From NCBI GenBank assembly GCA_024679565.1, contig JAIBDD010000002.1, positions 54,590 to 118,589 on the forward strand: a DNA stretch of 64,000 nucleotides, given 5' to 3'. Within the stretch, counting starts at the first letter, position 1. Each line of letters starts with the position of its first letter. Below are positions 33,802 to 57,200 of this stretch, one piece after another. The position numbers were made by a program, and so were the translations under genes. Below the pieces are notes generated by a model. That model was not told the DNA's origin. It saw only the letters and a program-made list of their open reading frames with translations, and searched no databases. The DNA comes from Bacteroidota bacterium (GTDB lineage: Bacteria; Bacteroidota; Bacteroidia; NS11-12g; UBA9320).

Positions 33802-36456
33802 CTACATTTGGTTCGGAATCTGTTCTGTCGAGAATTCGTATAACCTATCTGCCTCTTCTTCTTTTAGTCGTTTTACCAATTCTAAAGCATCTGGAACAAC
33901 GTCACTACACAACACAATTAACGACCCATCCACCGCGTTGTCTACCGCATGTTTTATGGCCTCAGATTCGGAAGGTATTATGGTTGTTTTAATGTTGGGA
34001 TCATGCATTTTGATTCCATCATCCAACATTTTTATCAACTCCTCCTCCGTTTTACCTCTTAATCGTTTGTCTTGACGAATGATAATCTCATCAAACATAT
34101 CAGCAGCGATGCTACCCATTTCATTATTGTCTTCTACTCTTCTGTCTCCAATTCCTGCTATAATACCGACCTTAACCGTGCACTCAATGTTTTCAATAAA
34201 TTGCTGAAGTGCTCGCATCCCAGCGGGGTTGTGGGCATAATCCAACAGTATTTTGAAGTTCTTAAAGTGGAATAAATTCAATCTTCCTGGCGTTTGGGTT
34301 GGTGAAGGAATAAACGTTTCTAAAGCTACTTTAATATCCTCGTTGCTAAATCCTTGAACGTGTGCAGCTAGTACTGCTGGCAACACATTCTGAATCATAA
34401 ATTTGGCCTTTCCTCCATACGTTAATGGAATATTTACCGCTTTGGATATTCTCATTTTCCATTCGCCACGGCAAATCGTGATATAGCCATTTTCGTAGAT
34501 AGCACTTAAGCCGTCTCGCTTTTGCATGGCTTTGATATGGATGTTTTCCTCGTCCATAGAGAACAGGGCCACATTACATTCCACCTTTTTTCTCATTTTA
34601 TAAACCAGATCATCATCGGCATTCAGGATGGCATAACCATTTGGAAGTACCGTTTCTGGAATTACACCTTTTACTGCAGCGAGTTGCTCGATGGTATGAA
34701 TTCCTTTAAGGCCTAAATGGTCGGCGGCCACATTGGTGACAATTCCAACATCGCAATTCTTAAACCCTAAACCTGCACGCAGCAATCCACCTCTCGCAGA
34801 TTCTAAAACCGCAAAATTGACTGTTGGGTCTTTCAATACAAATTCTGCGCTAGAAGGCCCTGTGCAATCTCCCTTCATCAAAAGTCTATTTTGAATATAC
34901 ACACCATCACTAGTCGTATATCCAACTTTGTAGCCTTTCATTTTCGCCATATAGGCAATCAAACGCGTGGTTGTTGTTTTCCCATTCGTTCCAGAAACAG
35001 CAACAATTGGAATTCTTGCGTTAGAACCTGGAGGGAATAATTTATCTATAACGGGTGCAGCAACATTGCGAGGTAAACCTGTGGTTGGTGCCAAATGCAT
35101 TCTAAACCCAGGGCCCGCATTAACTTCTAGCACCGCTCCTCTAGTATCCGCCAATGGCGTGCTGATATCAGAAGTCATTATGTCGATTCCGCAAATATCC
35201 AGTCCTATAATTTTAGAAATTCTTTCGGCCATAAATACGTTTGCTGGATGCACCACATCGGTTACATCTTCGGCCGTCCCTCCAGTACTTAAATTGGCGG
35301 TGTCTTTTAGTATTAACATTTCACCTTCAGAAATGACTGTGTCTACCGTATATCCCTTAGATTGAATCAACGTTTGTGTCAACTCATTCACCTTTATCGC
35401 GGTTAACACTTTTTCGTGTCCGTATCCACGTCTTGGGTCTTTGTTTACCTCGTCAATTAATTGTTGAATAGTTGATTTACCATCACCAATAACATGAGCC
35501 GGTGTTCTTTTTGCCGCAGCAACCAACTTGTGATTGATAACCAACAGTCGGTAGTCGTCACCCACAATAAACTTCTCAACGATTACCGCTCGAGACACCT
35601 TTTGCGCTTCTCTGAAGGCAACCAAAGCGTCTTCATAACTGTTTATGTTCACTGTAATTCCGCGACCGTGATTCCCATCGATTGGTTTAACCACTAGCGG
35701 AAAGCCAACATATCTGCAGGTCTCTTTCAAACTGCTTTCGCGTCTGATTATTTCTCCTCTTGGTACCTCAACTTCCGCCTGTTCTAAAAGATATTTTGTA
35801 TCCTCTTTGTCGCAGGCTAACTCTACGGCAATGTTGCTCGTTTCGCTTGTTACTGTGGCTTGAATTCTTTTTTGATTAGCTCCGTAACCCAATTGGCAAA
35901 GAGAATATTTATTTAACCTTAACCACGGTATGCCGCGTTTTTCTGCCTCTTCAACGATTGACCCAGTGCTTGGCCCGAGTCGTTCGTTTTCTCTTAAAAC
36001 ACGCATTTCTTGAATGTCTTCATCCAAGTCATATGATTCTCCACTAATTAATGCTTCACAAATGCGAACAGCAGCTCTCGCTGCATAGCGTCCCACATTT
36101 TCTTCCATGTACGCAAAAACCACATTATATACACCCTCTTCTCCATAACCACGTGTTCGTCCGAAGCCAACATCCATACCCGCTAAGGTTTGAATTTCTA
36201 GAGCAATGTGTTCAATAATATGACCCATCCAAGTGCCTTCTTCCACACGTTGAAAAAATCCACCTGGTGTACCCACTGAACATCTGTGGGCAAACATCGT
36301 AGGAAACATGTACTTTAACCTGTCTGCAAAACCATCAATTTTATCCGACGGTTTTTCTTCCATATCTTGAAGGTCAAGCACCATTACGATCAATCTGTGT
36401 CTTCTTACAGACCAATAATTTGGCCCTCGCATTGCTTGTATTTCTCTAATCTCCAT
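33802..36456 (-). CDS. cphA: cyanophycin synthetase
   Basis: 884 aa. N-terminal MRGPNYWSVRRHRLIVMVLDLQD...IDGF matches the CphA N-domain. Central ATP-grasp segment. C-terminal Mur-ligase-type P-loop VSGTNGKTTTTRLIAYM. Confidence 0.9.
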   Translation of the reverse strand: MEIREIQAMRGPNYWSVRRHRLIVMVLDLQDMEEKPSDKIDGFADRLKYMFPTMFAHRCSVGTPGGFFQRVEEGTWMGHIIEHIALEIQTLAGMDVGFGRTRGYGEEGVYNVVFAYMEENVGRYAARAAVRICEALISGESYDLDEDIQEMRVLRENERLGPSTGSIVEEAEKRGIPWLRLNKYSLCQLGYGANQKRIQATVTSETSNIAVELACDKEDTKYLLEQAEVEVPRGEIIRRESSLKETCRYVGFPLVVKPIDGNHGRGITVNINSYEDALVAFREAQKVSRAVIVEKFIVGDDYRLLVINHKLVAAAKRTPAHVIGDGKSTIQQLIDEVNKDPRRGYGHEKVLTAIKVNELTQTLIQSKGYTVDTVISEGEMLILKDTANLSTGGTAEDVTDVVHPANVFMAERISKIIGLDICGIDIMTSDISTPLADTRGAVLEVNAGPGFRMHLAPTTGLPRNVAAPVIDKLFPPGSNARIPIVAVSGTNGKTTTTRLIAYMAKMKGYKVGYTTSDGVYIQNRLLMKGDCTGPSSAEFVLKDPTVNFAVLESARGGLLRAGLGFKNCDVGIVTNVAADHLGLKGIHTIEQLAAVKGVIPETVLPNGYAILNADDDLVYKMRKKVECNVALFSMDEENIHIKAMQKRDGLSAIYENGYITICRGEWKMRISKAVNIPLTYGGKAKFMIQNVLPAVLAAHVQGFSNEDIKVALETFIPSPTQTPGRLNLFHFKNFKILLDYAHNPAGMRALQQFIENIECTVKVGIIAGIGDRRVEDNNEMGSIAADMFDEIIIRQDKRLRGKTEEELIKMLDDGIKMHDPNIKTTIIPSESEAIKHAVDNAVDGSLIVLCSDVVPDALELVKRLKEEEADRLYEFSTEQIPNQM

Positions 36457-36601
36457 ATCCTTCTATGTTATTATGCTGGTAAATGTGACCAAAAGCCACT
36501 AATGACGCGATAGAAGGCGTTGTTGTATACGCCTGCTGTACAATAATAACTTTTTTAATAATTAATGAAATTATACTTTGTTTTATTTACAAATTTGCGG
36601 G

Positions 36602-37465
36602 ATGGCAAAAGGGACACTAATTCCAATTGGAGGTAATGAGGATAAAGGAGATGGTTTAACAGAAAACTACTCGTTAGATTTTATCGAACAGGGAATATTA
36701 TCACACGTTGTTCGCGAATGTGGCGGAACAGATTCTTTAATTGTAGTTATTCCAACAGCATCAAGTATTCCTGAAGAAGTAGGTGAAAATTACCTTGACG
36801 CCTTTCAAAAATTAGGGTGTAACAATGTTTTGGTTTTAGACATTCGAAAAAAAGAAGACTCAGAAACTGCACATGCCATCGATCTGATTACCAGAGCCAA
36901 TTGTGTTATGTTTTCTGGCGGAGATCAGTCAAAAATTGCGAAAAAGATAGGTGGCACCGCTATTCATAAAATTCTAATGGACCGATATCAGGAAGATAAA
37001 GGTTTTGTGATTGCTGGAACAAGTGCTGGTGCGATGGCCATGTCCAATGAAATGATTGCAGGTGGAAGTAGTACGGAAGCATTTATTAAAGGTGCTGTTA
37101 AAATGTACACGGGTTTGGGTTTGGCTCCAGGCATAATGTTCGATACCCACTTCATAATGCGTGGTAGGTTTGGAAGAATAAGTGAAGCTGTTGCTAAGCA
37201 CCCAGAATTAATAGGCATAGGCTTAGCTGAAGACACTGGCTTGGTGATTAAAGAGGGTAATGACCTGAAAGTAATTGGGTCAGGGATGGTCATCATTTTT
37301 GATGGTAGCAGCTTGGTGCACAACAACGAAAAAATATTAGAGCCTGGTACACCAATGACCATAACCGACTTGAAGGTTCACGTGCTCTCTAATTCAGATA
37401 GATTTTCATTGACAGAAAGAAAGGTTACGGTACTTCCAATTGACGCACCTTTCGAGTTCGACTAA
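36602..37465 (+). CDS. cphB: cyanophycinase (peptidase S51)
   Basis: GTLIPIGGNEDK N-terminus. Ser nucleophile block VIAGTSAGAMAMS. Diverges from cphA across a 145-bp promoter region. Start set at MAKGTL (36602). Confidence 0.85.
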   Translation: MAKGTLIPIGGNEDKGDGLTENYSLDFIEQGILSHVVRECGGTDSLIVVIPTASSIPEEVGENYLDAFQKLGCNNVLVLDIRKKEDSETAHAIDLITRANCVMFSGGDQSKIAKKIGGTAIHKILMDRYQEDKGFVIAGTSAGAMAMSNEMIAGGSSTEAFIKGAVKMYTGLGLAPGIMFDTHFIMRGRFGRISEAVAKHPELIGIGLAEDTGLVIKEGNDLKVIGSGMVIIFDGSSLVHNNEKILEPGTPMTITDLKVHVLSNSDRFSLTERKVTVLPIDAPFEFD

Positions 37466-37471
37466 TACTTG

Positions 37472-38404
37472 CTATTTGTAAATCGCAACCTGGGTTTCTT
37501 GACCAGAAATATGTTGCGCTCTATACATCCCTTCGGTATTAAATGGCATAGTTATATTGCCTTCTGAATCGACAGCAATTAATCCCCCATCTCCACCGAT
37601 TTCAAGTATTCTCTTGTTAATTACTTCGTTAGCAGCCTCCTCAAGTGTGCAACCTTTAAATTCTATAAGTGCGCTTACCTCATAAGCAACAACACCTCGA
37701 ATAAAGAACTCTCCACTGCCGGTACAAGAAACAGCACACGTTTTATTATTTGCATAGTTCCCAGATCCAATCATTGGGCTATCACCTATTCTCCCAAAAC
37801 GCTTGTTAGTCATTCCGCCAGTAGATGTAGCAGCAGCTACGTTGCCATTTTGATCTAATGCAACAGCACCTACAGTCCCAAATTTGTGATCCTTAGACTT
37901 AGAATGATCGAGTTGAAAAGAATCCGTGTCTTTAATTTCTTGCCATTGGTCGTAACGCAATTGGTCAAAGAAGTATGCCTCGTCCACTGTTTTGACGTTT
38001 TGAGATTTTGCAAATTCCATAGCTCCATCTCCACCTAAAAAAACGTGTTCAGAATTATCCATGACCTTGCGTGCCAACTGAATTGGGTTTTTAATCCCAG
38101 ATATTAATCCTACTGCACCTGCTTCTTTGTTGGACCCGTCCATTATGGAGGCATCCATTTCATGTGCGCCATCTGCCGTGAAGACACTTCCTTTGCCTGC
38201 ATTAAACAGAGGCGAATCTTCCAAGACTGTAACCGCTTTTTCAACGGCATCGACAGCTGAACCACCATTTTGCAAAATTTCGTATCCAGCATTAATACTG
38301 GCTTCGAGTGATGCTTTATACGCTGCTTCTTTACTGGTCGTCATCATACCTTTAACCAAGGTTCCTGCCCCACCATGTATAGCGATAGAAAATTTATTCA
38401 TCAT
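37472..38404 (-). CDS. iaaA: isoaspartyl dipeptidase / plant-type L-asparaginase (Ntn hydrolase)
   Basis: IAIHGGAGT N-terminus. Autoprocessing/nucleophile region GTVGAVALDQNGNVAAATSTGGMTNKRFGRIGDSPMIGSGNYA. Confidence 0.85.
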   Translation of the reverse strand: MMNKFSIAIHGGAGTLVKGMMTTSKEAAYKASLEASINAGYEILQNGGSAVDAVEKAVTVLEDSPLFNAGKGSVFTADGAHEMDASIMDGSNKEAGAVGLISGIKNPIQLARKVMDNSEHVFLGGDGAMEFAKSQNVKTVDEAYFFDQLRYDQWQEIKDTDSFQLDHSKSKDHKFGTVGAVALDQNGNVAAATSTGGMTNKRFGRIGDSPMIGSGNYANNKTCAVSCTGSGEFFIRGVVAYEVSALIEFKGCTLEEAANEVINKRILEIGGDGGLIAVDSEGNITMPFNTEGMYRAQHISGQETQVAIYK

Positions 38405-38412
38405 TCAATCTA

Positions 38413-39453
38413 TTACTTGTACCACTTCTTTTTAAGCCAAAACGATAAACGCACCAACAAAATTAATGCCGGTACTTCTACTAATGGTCCTATCACACCT
38501 GCAAATGCTTGCTTACCATGTATACCAAAAACAGCGATGGCTACAGCAATGGCTAATTCAAAGTTATTACCAGCGGCAGTAAACGAAACTGAAGCGTTCT
38601 GTGCGTAAGTCGCTCCCAACAATTTGCTAAATAGGAAACTGATAAAAAACATCACGACAAAATAGATAACCAATGGAATCGATATTCTTAGTACGTCCAT
38701 AGGTAAATCAACAATGTACTCACCCTTTAGCGAAAACATCACGACAATGGTAAATAGCAGAGCAACAAGAGTCATGGGTGATATTTTGGGTATAAACGTA
38801 TTGTTGTACCAGTCTAACCCTTTTTGTTTGACCAACAACGCTCTTGTAACAATACCGGCTAAAAAAGGAATACCTAAATAAATGGCCACACTCTCGGCAA
38901 TTGTGCCAATAGATATATCGACTATGGCCCCTTCAAAGCCAAATAGTGGTGGCAGTTTGGTAATAAACAACCAAGCGTAAAAACTATATCCAAATACTTG
39001 AAAAACACTATTTAACGCAACTAAGCCAGCACCATACTCACTACTTCCGTCAGCTAAGTCGTTCCAAACCAGAACCATAGCGATACAGCGCGCCAAACCA
39101 ATTAAAATCACCCCGACCATGTATTCAGGGTAGTCATGCAAAAATGTCACGGCCAATACGAACATCAAAACTGGTCCGATTATCCAGTTAAGCACCAGCG
39201 ATAACGTAAGTACTTTTACGTTCTTAAAAACCACAGGAAGTAGGCTATAATTAACTTTGGCTAATGGTGGATACATCATGAGTATAAGGCCAATGGCAAT
39301 TGGAATATTGGTTGTTCCATGACTCAAAGAATCAACGACTTTGGCTGTGTTTGGAACGAAATATCCAATGGCAACACCAAGCGCCATTGCGATAAAAATC
39401 CAAAGTGTTAAGTATTGGTTTAAGAAGCTAAGTTTTTTTGTGTTTTTAGACAT
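38413..39453 (-). CDS. acr3: arsenite efflux permease, ACR3 family
   Basis: 346 aa with ~10 TM helices. N-terminal [27 protein letters not shown] is typical of Acr3. Confidence 0.85.
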
Positions 39454-39461
39454 TGTTAAGG

Positions 39462-40055
39462 TTATTGTGAAAATAGGAATTTCATTTCTGTTGCAATCTT
39501 TTCAGAAGTTTTCAAATAGGTTTCAGTTTCAGTCTCTGTACCATCCGACGCTTTAGGGTCAATATACGTTAAGGGGATTCGCTTAACCGCATGCGGAATA
39601 ACAGGACAGTTTTGATCGGCATGATCGCATGTCATAATGGCTATAAATCGTTTGGGATTCGCTTCATCAGAATGGAGCTTCGAAAAAAGTGAAATAGGTT
39701 CTTTCTCCGCATCGAAATTTACATGATATACGGGATTGTTTAGTCCGGTTCGACTCACTTGGAAACCGGTCACCTCGAGTGCATGTACTGTTCGAGGGTT
39801 ACACTCGGTTATCTCTACCCCGCCCGAAAAGCAATTCACATCATACGCGAAATACTCCGATAAGCATTGTGCCCACACTTGAGCAAACTGGCTTCGTCGA
39901 GAGTTGTGGGTGCAAATGAAGTTAAGGTTAACTTCTCCATTTTGCTCCATCTCTTGTTTTATTTGCTCCGACACGTCACGCAACTGGGCCTGCCGTGGTA
40001 AAGGAATAGCCTCAACAGACAGGTCGTCGATATATATTTTTAATGATCCCTCCAT
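39462..40055 (-). CDS. arsC: arsenate reductase-like low-molecular-weight phosphotyrosine phosphatase with N-terminal extension
   Basis: P-loop CTHNSRRS (CX5R) lies about 58 aa into the protein (58 from MEGSL). Unusual ~45-60 aa N-terminal extension. Start at MEGSLKIY (40055) avoids overlap with the upstream gene. Confidence 0.65.
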
Positions 40056-40056
40056 A

Positions 40057-40530
40057 TTAACAGCAACCACCGCCCGGTGTACAGCACGATTCAGCATCGG
40101 GTGTTAATGACGCCAAGCTCTTCTGTACTTTTTCCATAGGTATGCCGCAATTGTCTTTAGCTAAGCAATCTGTATAGGTGTTTGTTAAAACAAAATCTTT
40201 CCCGTCGAAACTCAGCCCATACTTTCCAATCGTATTGGATTGATATTCGACCTCAATATCACCATCGGTCAATTCAAGTATGTTTTCAGACAAGTTGATG
40301 ATGTCCAAAAATTTGGTAGGAGCAATTCGATGATCATAATCGTTGGCTTCCCAGAGCTGGAAGTTAATCGTGTTGTCCTCTCTTACTTTTCCACCGCAAT
40401 CGATGAAATGTTTTGACACTGCTCCAATTTCTGTCACATGAAAATGTTGTGGAACATACGAACCGTTAGGCAACTTGAAGCGAACTTCGCCTATTGATGT
40501 TAGCTGTGATTTTACTTCTGATAATTTCAT
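40057..40530 (-). CDS. ars-operon-associated protein (DUF6428-like) with C-terminal vicinal-cysteine tail
   Basis: Start set at MKLSEVKSQ. Ends ...ESCCTPGGGCC. Lies between arsR and arsC on the same strand with 1-10 bp gaps. Confidence 0.5.
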   Translation of the reverse strand: MKLSEVKSQLTSIGEVRFKLPNGSYVPQHFHVTEIGAVSKHFIDCGGKVREDNTINFQLWEANDYDHRIAPTKFLDIINLSENILELTDGDIEVEYQSNTIGKYGLSFDGKDFVLTNTYTDCLAKDNCGIPMEKVQKSLASLTPDAESCCTPGGGCC

Positions 40531-40540
40531 ATTTATACTT

Positions 40541-40873
40541 TTAACAACAGTTGTCTCCGCAAGAGGTAAATTGATCAAACAATTGATTGAGCATGTTTCT
40601 AATCTCTTCCCATCGCAAAGGGTTTATACAATAACTTACAGAAGTTCCCTCAATGGAACCCTGAATGATACCAACGTCTTTGAGTTCTCGTAAATGTTGA
40701 CTAATCGTCGCCTGTGCCAAACCCAACTCAGCCACCAAATCTCCATTTATACAAGCATTTGTTTTGAGTAAATGTTGAACAATGGCTATCCGTGCTGGGT
40801 GTGCAAAGGCTTTTGAAACCGTTGCGAGCTCATTTTGCACGTTGTCAAATAAATTTTTCTTAGTAACCCTCAT
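40541..40873 (-). CDS. arsR: ArsR/SmtB family metalloregulator
   Basis: HTH LAQATISQHLRELKDVGII. Canonical ELCVCDL replaced by NACINGDL. C-terminal SCGDNCC cysteine cluster. Confidence 0.8.
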   Translation of the reverse strand: MRVTKKNLFDNVQNELATVSKAFAHPARIAIVQHLLKTNACINGDLVAELGLAQATISQHLRELKDVGIIQGSIEGTSVSYCINPLRWEEIRNMLNQLFDQFTSCGDNCC

Positions 40874-40938
40874 TTGTATATTGCAATATTACGATGAATG
40901 TATTAAACCAACAACATAATTATCAGTAATCTTAAAAT

Positions 40939-54215: not shown

Positions 54216-57200
54216 ATGCGTAATTATCGTTCAGCTCATACTCTGCAAAATAGAAACTTGCTGCCCAACATTTTCCGATGGGCGTCTTCACTAATTTTCT
54301 TACTGTCCACATTTTCAGCGACTTACGGACAAGGCGTTGGTGTAAATGAGGATGGTACTGATCCGGACCCATCTGCCATTCTTGACGTAAAGTCAAATTC
54401 AAGAGGTATGTTGGTTCCACGACTCACAAAAGCCGTAAAGCTAGGAATACCCGGCCCTGCCAACGGTTTGTTGGTGTACCAAACCGACGACACGATTGGT
54501 TTTTGGTATTATGACATAAATAGGTGGAAACCCGTTTTTCAAAATATCACGGCAGGTAATGGCTTAACGGGCAACAAAATTGAAGGGTATGGCACCATTA
54601 ATTTAGAACCTACAGGAATTACGACCGGTCAATATGGAAATGCCGACTCTATACCACAGTTTACGGTTAATGCATTCGGACAGTTGGTGTTTGCGCGCAA
54701 TGTTGCTTTGCGAGAACAAGATGGCATTATTGGAAATGAAATAACAGACACCGCAAATAGTTTAGGACTGCTTAACAGAGCAGGTTCTGGAACCTCTGCT
54801 GATCCATACACCGTTGGTGTAAACAGTGGAAGTTCACAAAATGATATTTGGATGTGGGACGGCAACAATTGGGTGTTAACCCAGTTTCCATTTGAACAAG
54901 ACAGTATAATCGGAAATGAAATTAGTGATACCGCCCAATCTAGGGGCATATTGATTCGGAATGGTCGTGGAAACTCCGCAAATCCATACACACTAGGGGT
55001 AACAGCTGGTTCGGCTATCGGGGATGTTTTTATGTGGGACGGTAATAAGTGGGTTTCAAATCCCATTGTTTTCCCAACAGAACAAGACGGCATTATTGGA
55101 AACGAACTTACGGATACCACTAACGCTAGGGGCGTCATAAACCGTCAAGGAAGTGGCACCACAGCAAATCCGTATAAAATATCAGTAAACGCAGGAAACA
55201 ATGTCGGTGACGTTTGGATGTGGGACGGCAATAAATGGACGTCATCATCTGTCACTATTCCAAGCGAACAAGACAGTGTTATTGGAAACGAGGTAACGGA
55301 TACAATTAATGCACGTGGCGTGTTAAACCTCTACGGTTCAGGCACACAAACAAATCCATTAAAAATGGGAATAGAACCAGGCAACTCGACTGGTGATGTG
55401 TGGATGTGGAATGGCTCCTCTTGGGTGCCCTCTCAGATTACTCACCCACCAGTTATTATTCCAAAAGAAAAAGACAGTGTCATTGGTAACGAAATTGCAG
55501 ATACATTTAACACGTATGGTTTGATTGTCAGACAAGGCAGCGGAACAGATGTTGACCCTTATACCATAGGAGCAAAACCTGGAACCAGCGCAGGACAATC
55601 TTTAGTGTGGGATGGAACAAAGTGGGTGCTTACAACCATCGTTATTCCATTGGAAAAAGACAGTGTCATTGGTAATGAAATTGCAGATACACTGGGGTCT
55701 AATGGGATTTTAACAAGGGGCGGAACTGGGGTCGACGCAGACCCATTTACAGTTGGCATAAACAGTGGTTCAGCCTCCGGTGATGTTTGGATGTGGAACG
55801 GTACTTCTTGGGTGCCTACACAAATCACGCACCCAAATGAAGTGGATGGAATAATTGGTAATGAGTTGACTGATACAATAAACGCAAGAGGTGTTTTGCA
55901 GCGTTCAGGATCTGGAACGGTAGCGAACCCATACAAAATTGGGGTAACGACAGGTAAAAGCAACGGAGACGTATGGATGTGGAATGGCTCGAATTGGGTA
56001 CCGTCACAAATCGTTCACCCGAACGAGGTTGATGGTATTGTGGGTAATGAAGTTACAGACACCATTGCCAATGGCTTCTTAAACTTAACTGGTGCAGGTA
56101 CCGCAGCTAGCCCTAAAAAGGTGGGACTAAAGTCTGGTAATACAGTAGGAGATGTTATTGTTTGGGATGGCACAACATGGGTGCCCGGTTATTTAGACCG
56201 AAACACGTTGGATATGGCCTATGACGAAGGCGGTGCTGGAAATGGTAGGACAATTACCGCCGATAATGGCGCAGTAGAAATAAAAGGAGCTGATGGGTTT
56301 TTGGTTGACGGAAAAGTTGGGACAGGCGCTACAGCGGGTTCCATTGGTGCAAGTACACGTTTACACTTTAACCCAAGAACATCTGCATTTCGCGCAGGAA
56401 CTGCTGTAGCAACAGAGTGGGACGCAGCCAATTTGGGGCTTTACTCTACAGCTTTTGGATATGGCTCGCTTGCTTCAGATGACTACACATTTGCTGCCGG
56501 TAAAGGCGCAAGTGCCGTTGGTGATCACAGTATTGCCATCGGTGATAGTACAGTAACTCTACTTGAGTATTCCATTGCCATGGGAAATAGGTCGGTGACA
56601 GGTGGTAAAAACACAATGGCCATTGGAACAGGAAATACCGCATATGGTCAATACTCCTTTATTACAGGAATTAACTCTAGATCATTAGGTACAAATTCTG
56701 GAATATTTGGTGAAGAGTGTTTTGTATTAAGTGGATACAAACATGGCTATGCCTTTGGTCATAGAGATACCGTAAAGGGCGATTATGCTGTGGCCATCGG
56801 TCATAATGCATATTCTGAAGGAACTGGAGCGGTTGCCATTGGATTTAACGTGCGCACAAATAACCCGTATTCTGTCGCTATTGGAAACAATGCCGATGCT
56901 ATTGCTGACAGGTCTGTGGCTATAGGAAGCTTTGTGTCGACCAACCTAAAAAATGGCTCATTCATATTTGGTGACGGAAGTACAACAACAACCATGTTTA
57001 GTCCTGCTCAACACACCATGACTATGCGTTTTAACAACGGGTATAGACTTTACTCCAAATCAGATTTAACTACTGGTGTTTACATGCTGAATGGCGGTAC
57101 ATCATGGACTTCGGTTTCGGATAGAAACATGAAAGAAAATTTTGAAGATATAAATGGAGAAGACCTTCTCGATAAAATAGAAGATCTACCCATTACTAAA

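Follow-up and report, generated by a model that had tools for sequence, protein, structure and literature searches.

ArArsR of Arsenicibacter rosenii SM-1 represents a new type of ArsR, the repressor of arsenic resistance (ars) genes, and was described by Zhang et al. (2025, mLife; PMC11868830). Its response to arsenite, As(III), needs Cys41, Cys80 and Cys82, and Cys41 with Cys82 is enough for the response to methylarsenite, MAs(III). The C80S mutant has lost the As(III) response and kept the response to MAs(III), and the single mutants C43S, C107S and C108S still respond. DNase I footprinting placed ArArsR on the sequence TTTTATCGTAATATTGCGATCACAATC, and the A. rosenii arsRMC operon functions without a DUF6428 gene in it (PMC11868830). 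In the reference R773-type system from an E. coli plasmid, arsD lies between arsR and arsA and ends GIPLDKVGLAPSGCCGGNTSCC (also given as FGIPLDKVGLAPSGCCGGNTSCC); ArsD homologues retain the arrangement GI-linker-CC-x4-5-CC. The chaperone activity of ArsD requires Cys12, Cys13 and Cys18, not the C-terminal cysteine pairs (PMC4562236). An older function of ArsD in repression and sensing has been ascribed to these pairs, MBS2 and MBS3, which are missing from some ArsDs (PMC4562236, PMC6683785). Here we compare these systems with an arsR-DUF6428-arsC-acr3 operon located in a stretch of 64,000 nucleotides (hereafter the window; positions 54,590 to 118,589 of contig JAIBDD010000002.1) from a Bacteroidota bacterium (assembly GCA_024679565.1).

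An ars operon of the Bacteroidota type

The ORF (open reading frame) list and the sequence itself show four co-oriented ORFs on the minus strand, in the order arsR, DUF6428, an arsC of the low-molecular-weight protein tyrosine phosphatase (LMW-PTP) family, and acr3. Direct reading of the sequence gives spacers of 10, 1 and 8 bp along this series. The original prediction, a note drawn up from the sequence without database searches, had proposed an ars operon of four genes on one strand with spacers of 1-10 bp; the layout was found as described, and profile matches confirmed the identity of the operon. The repressor matched PF01022 (E=1.9e-10) and NF033788 (64.3 bits for a cutoff of 55), the second protein matched PF20001 over profile positions 1-155 of 155 (E=9.9e-63, 211 bits for a cutoff of 28.7), and the last one matched both PF01758 and TIGR00832 (435.3 bits, cutoff 282.8). 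The ArsC-like protein scored 54.8 bits against TIGR02691, for which the cutoff is 174.3, in a match split into two pieces. The motifs NACINGDL, SCGDNCC, SCCTPGGGCC and CTHNSRRS were all found in the window proteins.

In a collection of species-representative genomes, one for each species, at least 592 stretches were found to encode a relative of DUF6428, and the best 80 loci were kept. ORFs were called in these loci and searched with the four window proteins; several of the contigs are truncated, so the counts given here are lower bounds. An ArsR gene lies upstream of the DUF6428 gene, on the same strand, in 79 of the 80 loci, and no more than 120 bp away in 72. The long form of ArsC is present in 61 loci (directly after DUF6428 in 52), Acr3 in 50 and an MIP channel in 7, and the exact four-gene order of the window recurs in 35. 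ORFs for ArsD, ArsA or ArsB were found in none of the 80 loci within 6 kb on either side. More distant members of the DUF6428 family (37-42% identity) likewise adjoin ArsR, LMW-PTP or Acr3. The pairing of ArsR with DUF6428 in 79 of 80 related loci is far from what chance would produce, and the genomic link of DUF6428 to ArsR is closer than its link to Acr3. Since the arrangement recurs across loci and distant members again adjoin ars genes, the window operon is unremarkable among Bacteroidota, in which this operon type is very common; conservation of the gene order in this phylum, which the original prediction had listed as something to verify, is thus established. The ars DNA of the window itself recurs in several metagenome assemblies of estuarine and marine origin, as well as in the metagenome-assembled genome (MAG) GCA_040264775.1, and the closest named relatives are MAGs of Bacteroidia and Crocinitomicaceae. 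A scan for sigma-70 promoters and terminators yielded nothing informative for this Bacteroidota locus. Together, these results identify the locus as a Bacteroidota-type arsenic resistance operon, ordinary for its phylum.

We propose that the ArArsR-type repressor binds the ATCGTAATATTGCAAT palindrome, which would overlap its own promoter, and that a trivalent arsenical releases it. Release would turn on the four co-oriented, tightly spaced genes. The arsenite site of the window ArsR would be completed by cysteines of its tail. The long ArsC would reduce arsenate to arsenite by way of a thioredoxin-coupled cascade running from Cys48 to Cys143 to Cys150, and Acr3 would export the arsenite produced. 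DUF6428, which would be produced in parallel with these proteins, is envisaged as a small cytosolic protein whose flexible C(C)-x5-CC tail could offer three or four thiolates; the tail, along with Cys45, Cys122 and Cys128, would bind As(III) and so lower its free concentration, and the protein might hand arsenite on to Acr3, to an MIP channel or to ArsR. In arsRDABC operons the slot behind arsR belongs to arsD; DUF6428 would fill it here with a fold unrelated to that of ArsD and with no ArsA partner. For this explanation as a whole, including the role of DUF6428 as an arsenite-binding buffer or hand-off protein, we estimate a probability of about 0.5.

The ArsR repressor and its operator

The window ArsR has Cys41, Asn43, Ser80 and Cys82, and three cysteines in the tail (Cys105, Cys109 and Cys110). 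When the protein was aligned with 79 operon-linked homologues, Cys41, Cys82 and Cys109 were found to be invariant (80/80) and Cys110 to be present in 78 sequences. Cys43 occurs in 69, within the motif C-[IV]-C-G-D-[IL], and Cys80 in 72, within a wing motif C-Y-C; the corresponding segment of the window protein, with Ser80, reads SVSYCIN. This six-cysteine pattern of the family matches that of ArArsR, on which ground the window ArsR was filed under the ArArsR type. Both proteins come from the same phylum, have Cys41 and Cys82 under the same numbers and end in a vicinal pair. The window protein differs by its Asn43 and Ser80, the latter meaning that the third As(III) ligand is missing, and by the extra Cys105; its operon includes DUF6428, ArsC and Acr3, whereas that of ArArsR includes ArsM and ArsC. 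Judged by its sequence, the window ArsR is a natural variant of the ArArsR type from which Cys43 and Cys80 have been lost and which carries an extra cysteine in the tail.

The operator points to the same relationship. An ArArsR-type operator, ATCGTAATATTGCGAT, is found upstream of the window's own arsR gene as an exact ATCGTAATATTGCAAT, the sole match in the 64 kb window and a site also recovered by a palindrome search. The window site and the ArArsR footprint share the core ATCGTAATATTGC(G/A)AT. The same 16-mer precedes arsR in 67 of 80 sequences when up to 3 mismatches are allowed (in 45 it is exact), and the core was recovered from the arsR upstream regions independently of the published footprint.

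The metalloid site of R773-type repressors (Cys32-x-Cys34-x2-Cys37 in helix alpha-3) is lacking: only the equivalent of Cys32 is found, as Cys41 in NACINGDLV. The original prediction had rightly noticed the lack of the classical site, in which the second cysteine of CVC is missing, and the three cysteines of the tail; its comparison of the tail with the As(III) site of the Acidithiobacillus-type ArsR fits the protein less well than the ArArsR type does. AfArsR of Acidithiobacillus ferrooxidans does have three cysteines near its C-terminus, a vicinal pair among them. Its type 2 site, however, is Cys95-Cys96-x5-Cys102, and the window tail, C105-x3-C109-C110, has the reverse order and stands at the very end of the protein. 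Moreover, the relatives of the window ArsR keep the terminal CC alongside other sensing cysteines, which suggests that this pair is a constant of the family rather than a replacement site. AfArsR was not among the PDB sequence matches of the window ArsR at E<=1e-3.

Cys43 and Cys80 are both lost in 8 of the 80 aligned proteins, a minority to which the window ArsR belongs. An extra cysteine is present within the last 14 residues in 5 of these 8, against 8 of the 72 others (Fisher p=0.002, a value not corrected for shared ancestry). A site rebuilt with the tail, in which Cys105, Cys109 or Cys110 would now supply the third As(III) ligand, is favoured only slightly, the ground being that the genes under control handle inorganic arsenic. 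The ArArsR mutants speak against such a site: both cysteines of the terminal CC are individually dispensable there, and C80S loses the As(III) response (PMC11868830). By these data the window ArsR may be selective for MAs(III) rather than rebuilt. It would then be a natural methylarsenite sensor resembling ArArsR C80S, which keeps the MAs(III) response only, or SpArsR; Ser80 of the window protein and the unaffected C107S and C108S mutants fit this possibility, and the tail cysteines would have no part in sensing. We regard it as rather unlikely, given that the regulated ArsC and Acr3 handle inorganic arsenic, that extra tail cysteines are enriched in the Ser80 clade and that a role of the vicinal pair can be masked in single mutants.

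All 8 ArsRs devoid of Cys80 are also devoid of Cys43, and all 69 with Cys43 keep Cys80. Cys43 was nonetheless dispensable in the mutagenesis of ArArsR, and the joint loss hints at an unrecognised link between the two positions, or else at a single clade.

The DUF6428 family and its cysteine tail

The databases contain more than 8000 homologues of DUF6428, which group into 766 clusters at 50% identity. The window member proved to be one residue shorter than the 158 residues first assigned to it. Across 79 diverse members, residues E34, C45, Q58, H67, C122 and C156 are invariant, and H29, H31, T33, D44, G46, G47, D64, R68, K73, E95, T120, C128, C150 and C157 are conserved in at least 90%. The original prediction had made its case dependent on homologues keeping the cysteine tail. 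They do so: the terminal CC is present in all of 119 close homologues and in 97 of 107 diverse ones. The diverse set has C-x3-7-CC in 88 members and two vicinal pairs (CC..CC) in only 34. As far as these alignments indicate, the conserved unit of the tail is three thiols, which is the number that As(III) requires.

The AlphaFold2 (AF2) model of the protein (overall predicted local distance difference test score, pLDDT, 89.8) predicts with confidence an alpha/beta domain spanning residues 1-130; a flexible linker leads from it to the tail CCTPGGGCC, where pLDDT falls to 56-59. Comparison of the model with solved structures by Foldseek gave no match at E<=1e-3 (template modelling, TM, score at most 0.24), and a PDB sequence-profile search gave no match either. 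Searches against other Pfam families at E values up to 10 revealed no enzyme family and no DNA-binding domain, and a search against PHROGs found no match. DUF6428 is thus a widespread cysteine-tailed family without assigned function in the standard ars operon of Bacteroidota.

The window protein ends CGIPMEKVQKSLASLTPDAESCCTPGGGCC (GIPMEKV...SCCTPGGGCC). Like the R773 ArsD (PF06953), it is encoded directly after arsR and has a tail of the form GIPxxK...CC-x5-CC; the latter element reads CCTPGGGCC in DUF6428 and CCGGNTSCC in ArsD. In a profile-profile comparison the tails alone aligned, over 24 columns, with P=3.7e-4 and a probability of 36%. True homology was rejected in view of this restricted alignment and a BLASTP E value of 0.035. 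In contrast to ArsD, DUF6428 has no PF06953 match and no match to the thioredoxin-like ArsD fold, it lacks the N-terminal CC-x4-C (Cys12-Cys13-Cys18), its conserved core cysteines being C45, C122 and C128, and none of the 80 loci offers it an ArsA partner. The resemblance therefore appears to be a shared or convergent tail motif, extending beyond the cysteines alone, on unrelated folded domains. The ArsD-like tail claimed by the original prediction holds for the window protein and is backed by the tail profile, but the family as a whole is characterised by C-x3-7-CC and only a minority carries both pairs. Its further suggestion of an arsenite chaperone for Acr3 draws on the same likeness and fares less well, as the tail of ArsD is not its chaperone site and Acr3 lies near DUF6428 in only 50 of the 80 loci.

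A scan of IMG/VR found relatives of DUF6428 on 39 viral contigs. ArsR and Acr3 stand beside the gene on only one of them; the other 38 carry it as a stand-alone gene and include T4-like and jumbo phages, on contigs of up to 390 kb. Neighbours on 16 representative contigs include Gp23 capsid, PhoH, thymidylate synthase, dUTPase and DNA methylase genes, and the DUF6428 representative P0372 sits in a T4-like contig. The phage proteins (32-45% identity) keep the motifs HFH[VI]TE, DCGG, DH[RK], E[YF] and T.CLAPDKCG. Their tail is shortened to ...CG[VI]xGCC, which brings the terminal CC to 4 residues past Cys128. Examples among the viral contigs L092-L128 are L128:4953-5381 and L118:4953-5390, with tails ending in ...APDKCGVSGCC. 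The phage sequences suggest that DUF6428 may be able to work without a co-encoded partner, and the short tails suggest that the terminal CC could act together with Cys122 and Cys128.

From its gene context and the conservation of its cysteines, DUF6428 most likely binds As(III). Several observations weigh against the role of buffer or hand-off protein that we propose for it. About 30 of the 80 loci have no nearby Acr3, and the phage copies, but for one contig of 39, have no ars neighbours; both argue that a dedicated Acr3 partner is not required. Because the tail pairs of ArsD are not needed for chaperoning, likeness to that tail does not by itself imply a chaperone. Residues H29, H31, E34, H67, R68, K73 and E95 are conserved in the folded domain and retained in the phage copies, and such conserved His, Glu, Arg and Lys residues would suit a metal or oxyanion site, or catalysis, better than pure thiol binding. 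Finally, literature searches for DUF6428 and PF20001, and wider ones on ars genes and Bacteroidetes, turned up no paper on the family and no biochemical evidence for it.

These polar residues could also mean that DUF6428 is an enzyme, with His29, His31, Glu34, His67, Arg68 and Glu95 forming a metal or oxyanion site whose substrate would be an arsenical bound to the cysteine tail; as candidate reactions, this substrate might be oxidised, demethylated or reduced. An analogy is offered by the C-As lyase ArsI, where two vicinal cysteines position a trivalent organoarsenical next to an Fe(II) centre. Conservation of the polar residues equals that of the cysteines, both in the 79 diverse sequences and in the phage homologues; that phages carry the gene on its own implies a function for which no partner need be encoded alongside, and a fold without solved relative leaves room for an active site. 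Yet no similarity to any enzyme family emerged from the Pfam (E up to 10), PDB sequence or fold searches, and the pathway of reduction and export is already complete in the operon, so we hold catalysis to be unlikely. Less likely still is a regulatory role, in which DUF6428 would pass As(III) to the terminal CC of ArsR or serve as an ArsD-like second modulator of operon expression: the tightest genomic link of DUF6428 is indeed to ArsR (79 of 80 loci and the distant members), both proteins end in CC, a pair without assigned role in ArArsR (PMC11868830), and the C-terminal pairs of ArsD have been linked to repression or sensing (PMC4562236), but no DNA-binding domain can be recognised in DUF6428, the arsRMC operon of A. 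rosenii functions with no such gene in it (PMC11868830), and phage copies occur without an ArsR neighbour.

The long-form ArsC, neighbouring genes and significance

The third protein has 5377 homologues, about 200 residues long, and the best 120 listed cover 89-100% of its length. In its AF2 model (pLDDT 94.9), the best Foldseek matches are the thioredoxin-type ArsCs 8p5n, 1jl3 and 1ljl, with target-normalised TM scores of about 0.8. The P-loop, C48-THNSR-R54-S55, has the form CX5R(S/T) and is invariant in 66 homologues, and Cys48 aligns with Cys10 of B. subtilis ArsC (1jl3). Also aligned to 1jl3, and invariant, are C143-x6-C150, the equivalents of Cys82 and Cys89, and D166-P167, which contains the general acid. 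The protein thus resembles the thioredoxin-coupled ArsCs of S. aureus pI258 and B. subtilis and D. indicus ArsC2 in its CX5R(S) loop, its Cys82/Cys89 pair, its Asp-Pro and its fold. It differs from them in having an N-terminal extension of two predicted helices, with an invariant arginine, and an internal insertion of about 20 residues, modelled as a beta-hairpin; its P-loop is CTHNSRRS, and its score remains far under the TIGR02691 cutoff. The profile scores and alignments mark it as a divergent long-form subfamily of a known enzyme that falls outside any NCBIfam equivalog.

Residue 44 aligns with residue 6 of 1jl3, giving an extension of 38 residues. Homologues share the length of the N-terminal 40 residues, with Arg21 invariant and Leu25 conserved in at least 90%, and this segment is modelled as two packed helices (residues 3-10 and 19-39) with pLDDT values of 92-98. 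On these grounds a start at a downstream ATG (MEQNG...) was rejected. The N-terminal extension is real and not a start-codon artefact, as the original prediction had allowed it might be; the distance it had given was too long, since 47 residues and not 58 precede the catalytic Cys48 when counting from MEGSL. Public gene calls start the protein at an upstream ATG (211 aa), in an overlap of 41 nt with DUF6428 (window 40055-40097), and the same upstream ATG was called at L082-L084:8434-9069. The start favoured by alignment with homologues is MEGSL, which lies 1 bp past the DUF6428 stop.

Features of the ars operon in the window
Feature	Position	Strand	Basis
arsR operator ATCGTAATATTGCAAT	40880..40895	-	imperfect palindrome, end 6 nt 5' of the arsR ATG
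arsR, ArArsR-type repressor of the ArsR/SmtB family, 110 aa	40541..40873	-	PF01022, NF033788, cysteine comparison with 79 operon-linked homologues
DUF6428 protein, 157 aa	40057..40530	-	PF20001 over full length
Predicted long-form thioredoxin-type LMW-PTP arsenate reductase, 197 aa from MEGSL	39462..40055	-	TIGR02691 (partial), alignment with 1jl3
acr3, arsenite efflux carrier, 346 aa	38413..39453	-	TIGR00832, PF01758

An isoaspartyl peptidase gene (window 37472-38404) begins 8 bp past the acr3 stop codon on the same strand, and transcription from the ars promoter may read through into it. This gene, a cyanophycinase gene and a cyanophycin synthetase gene make up a cyanophycin cluster adjoining the ars operon (37472-38404, minus strand; 36578-37465, plus strand; 33802-36456, minus strand).

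Variable accessory genes were seen 3' of the core operon at L005, L014, L021, L072 and other members of the set of 80 loci. They encode GNAT acetyltransferases (ArsN-like), MIP channels, an EamA transporter, methyltransferases, an ABC1 kinase, a TetR regulator, an FMO-like monooxygenase with flavin reductase, and short LMW-PTPs; among these, the GNAT, methyltransferase, flavin monooxygenase/reductase and short LMW-PTP neighbours are typical companions of ars genes. Four DUF6428 loci (L001, L020, L035 and L073) lie in MAGs labelled Akkermansia, Micavibrio, Ignavibacteriales and Nitrotoga. Three of them show the ArsR-DUF6428 arrangement in the style of Bacteroidota; L020, from the Micavibrio MAG, does not and is the sole locus of the 80 without an adjacent ArsR. 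Their placement reflects either horizontal transfer or contamination during binning. At L086:4610-6659 and L087:161-2210, a distant DUF6428 (P0350) accompanied by ArsR is followed by a 375-aa protein, in place of ArsC or Acr3, with weak thioredoxin-like matches (AhpC-TSA, Thioredoxin_8).

Few bacterial resistance systems have been mapped as well as arsenic detoxification. The list of known ars parts comes mostly from Proteobacteria and Firmicutes, and to this list the standard Bacteroidota operon adds a gene without assigned function. DUF6428 occupies the position of arsD, joins a cysteine tail like that of ArsD to an unrelated fold and also travels on phages; it is a potential new ars gene. 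Tentatively, it might define a new class of arsenic-handling proteins with a fold not represented among solved structures, acting either as the missing arsenite chaperone or buffer for ATP-independent exit routes (Acr3, aquaglyceroporins) and for the ArArsR sensor, or as a metal-dependent enzyme on arsenicals; in Bacteroidota it would belong to the core ars genes, and aquatic phages of the T4-like and jumbo kinds would have taken it up as an auxiliary gene. The window ArsR, for its part, amounts to an experiment made by nature on the site that was described for ArArsR in 2025, having lost the ligand that separates arsenite from methylarsenite sensing. As such, it bears on the design of biosensors and on the movement of sensing sites within one protein scaffold.

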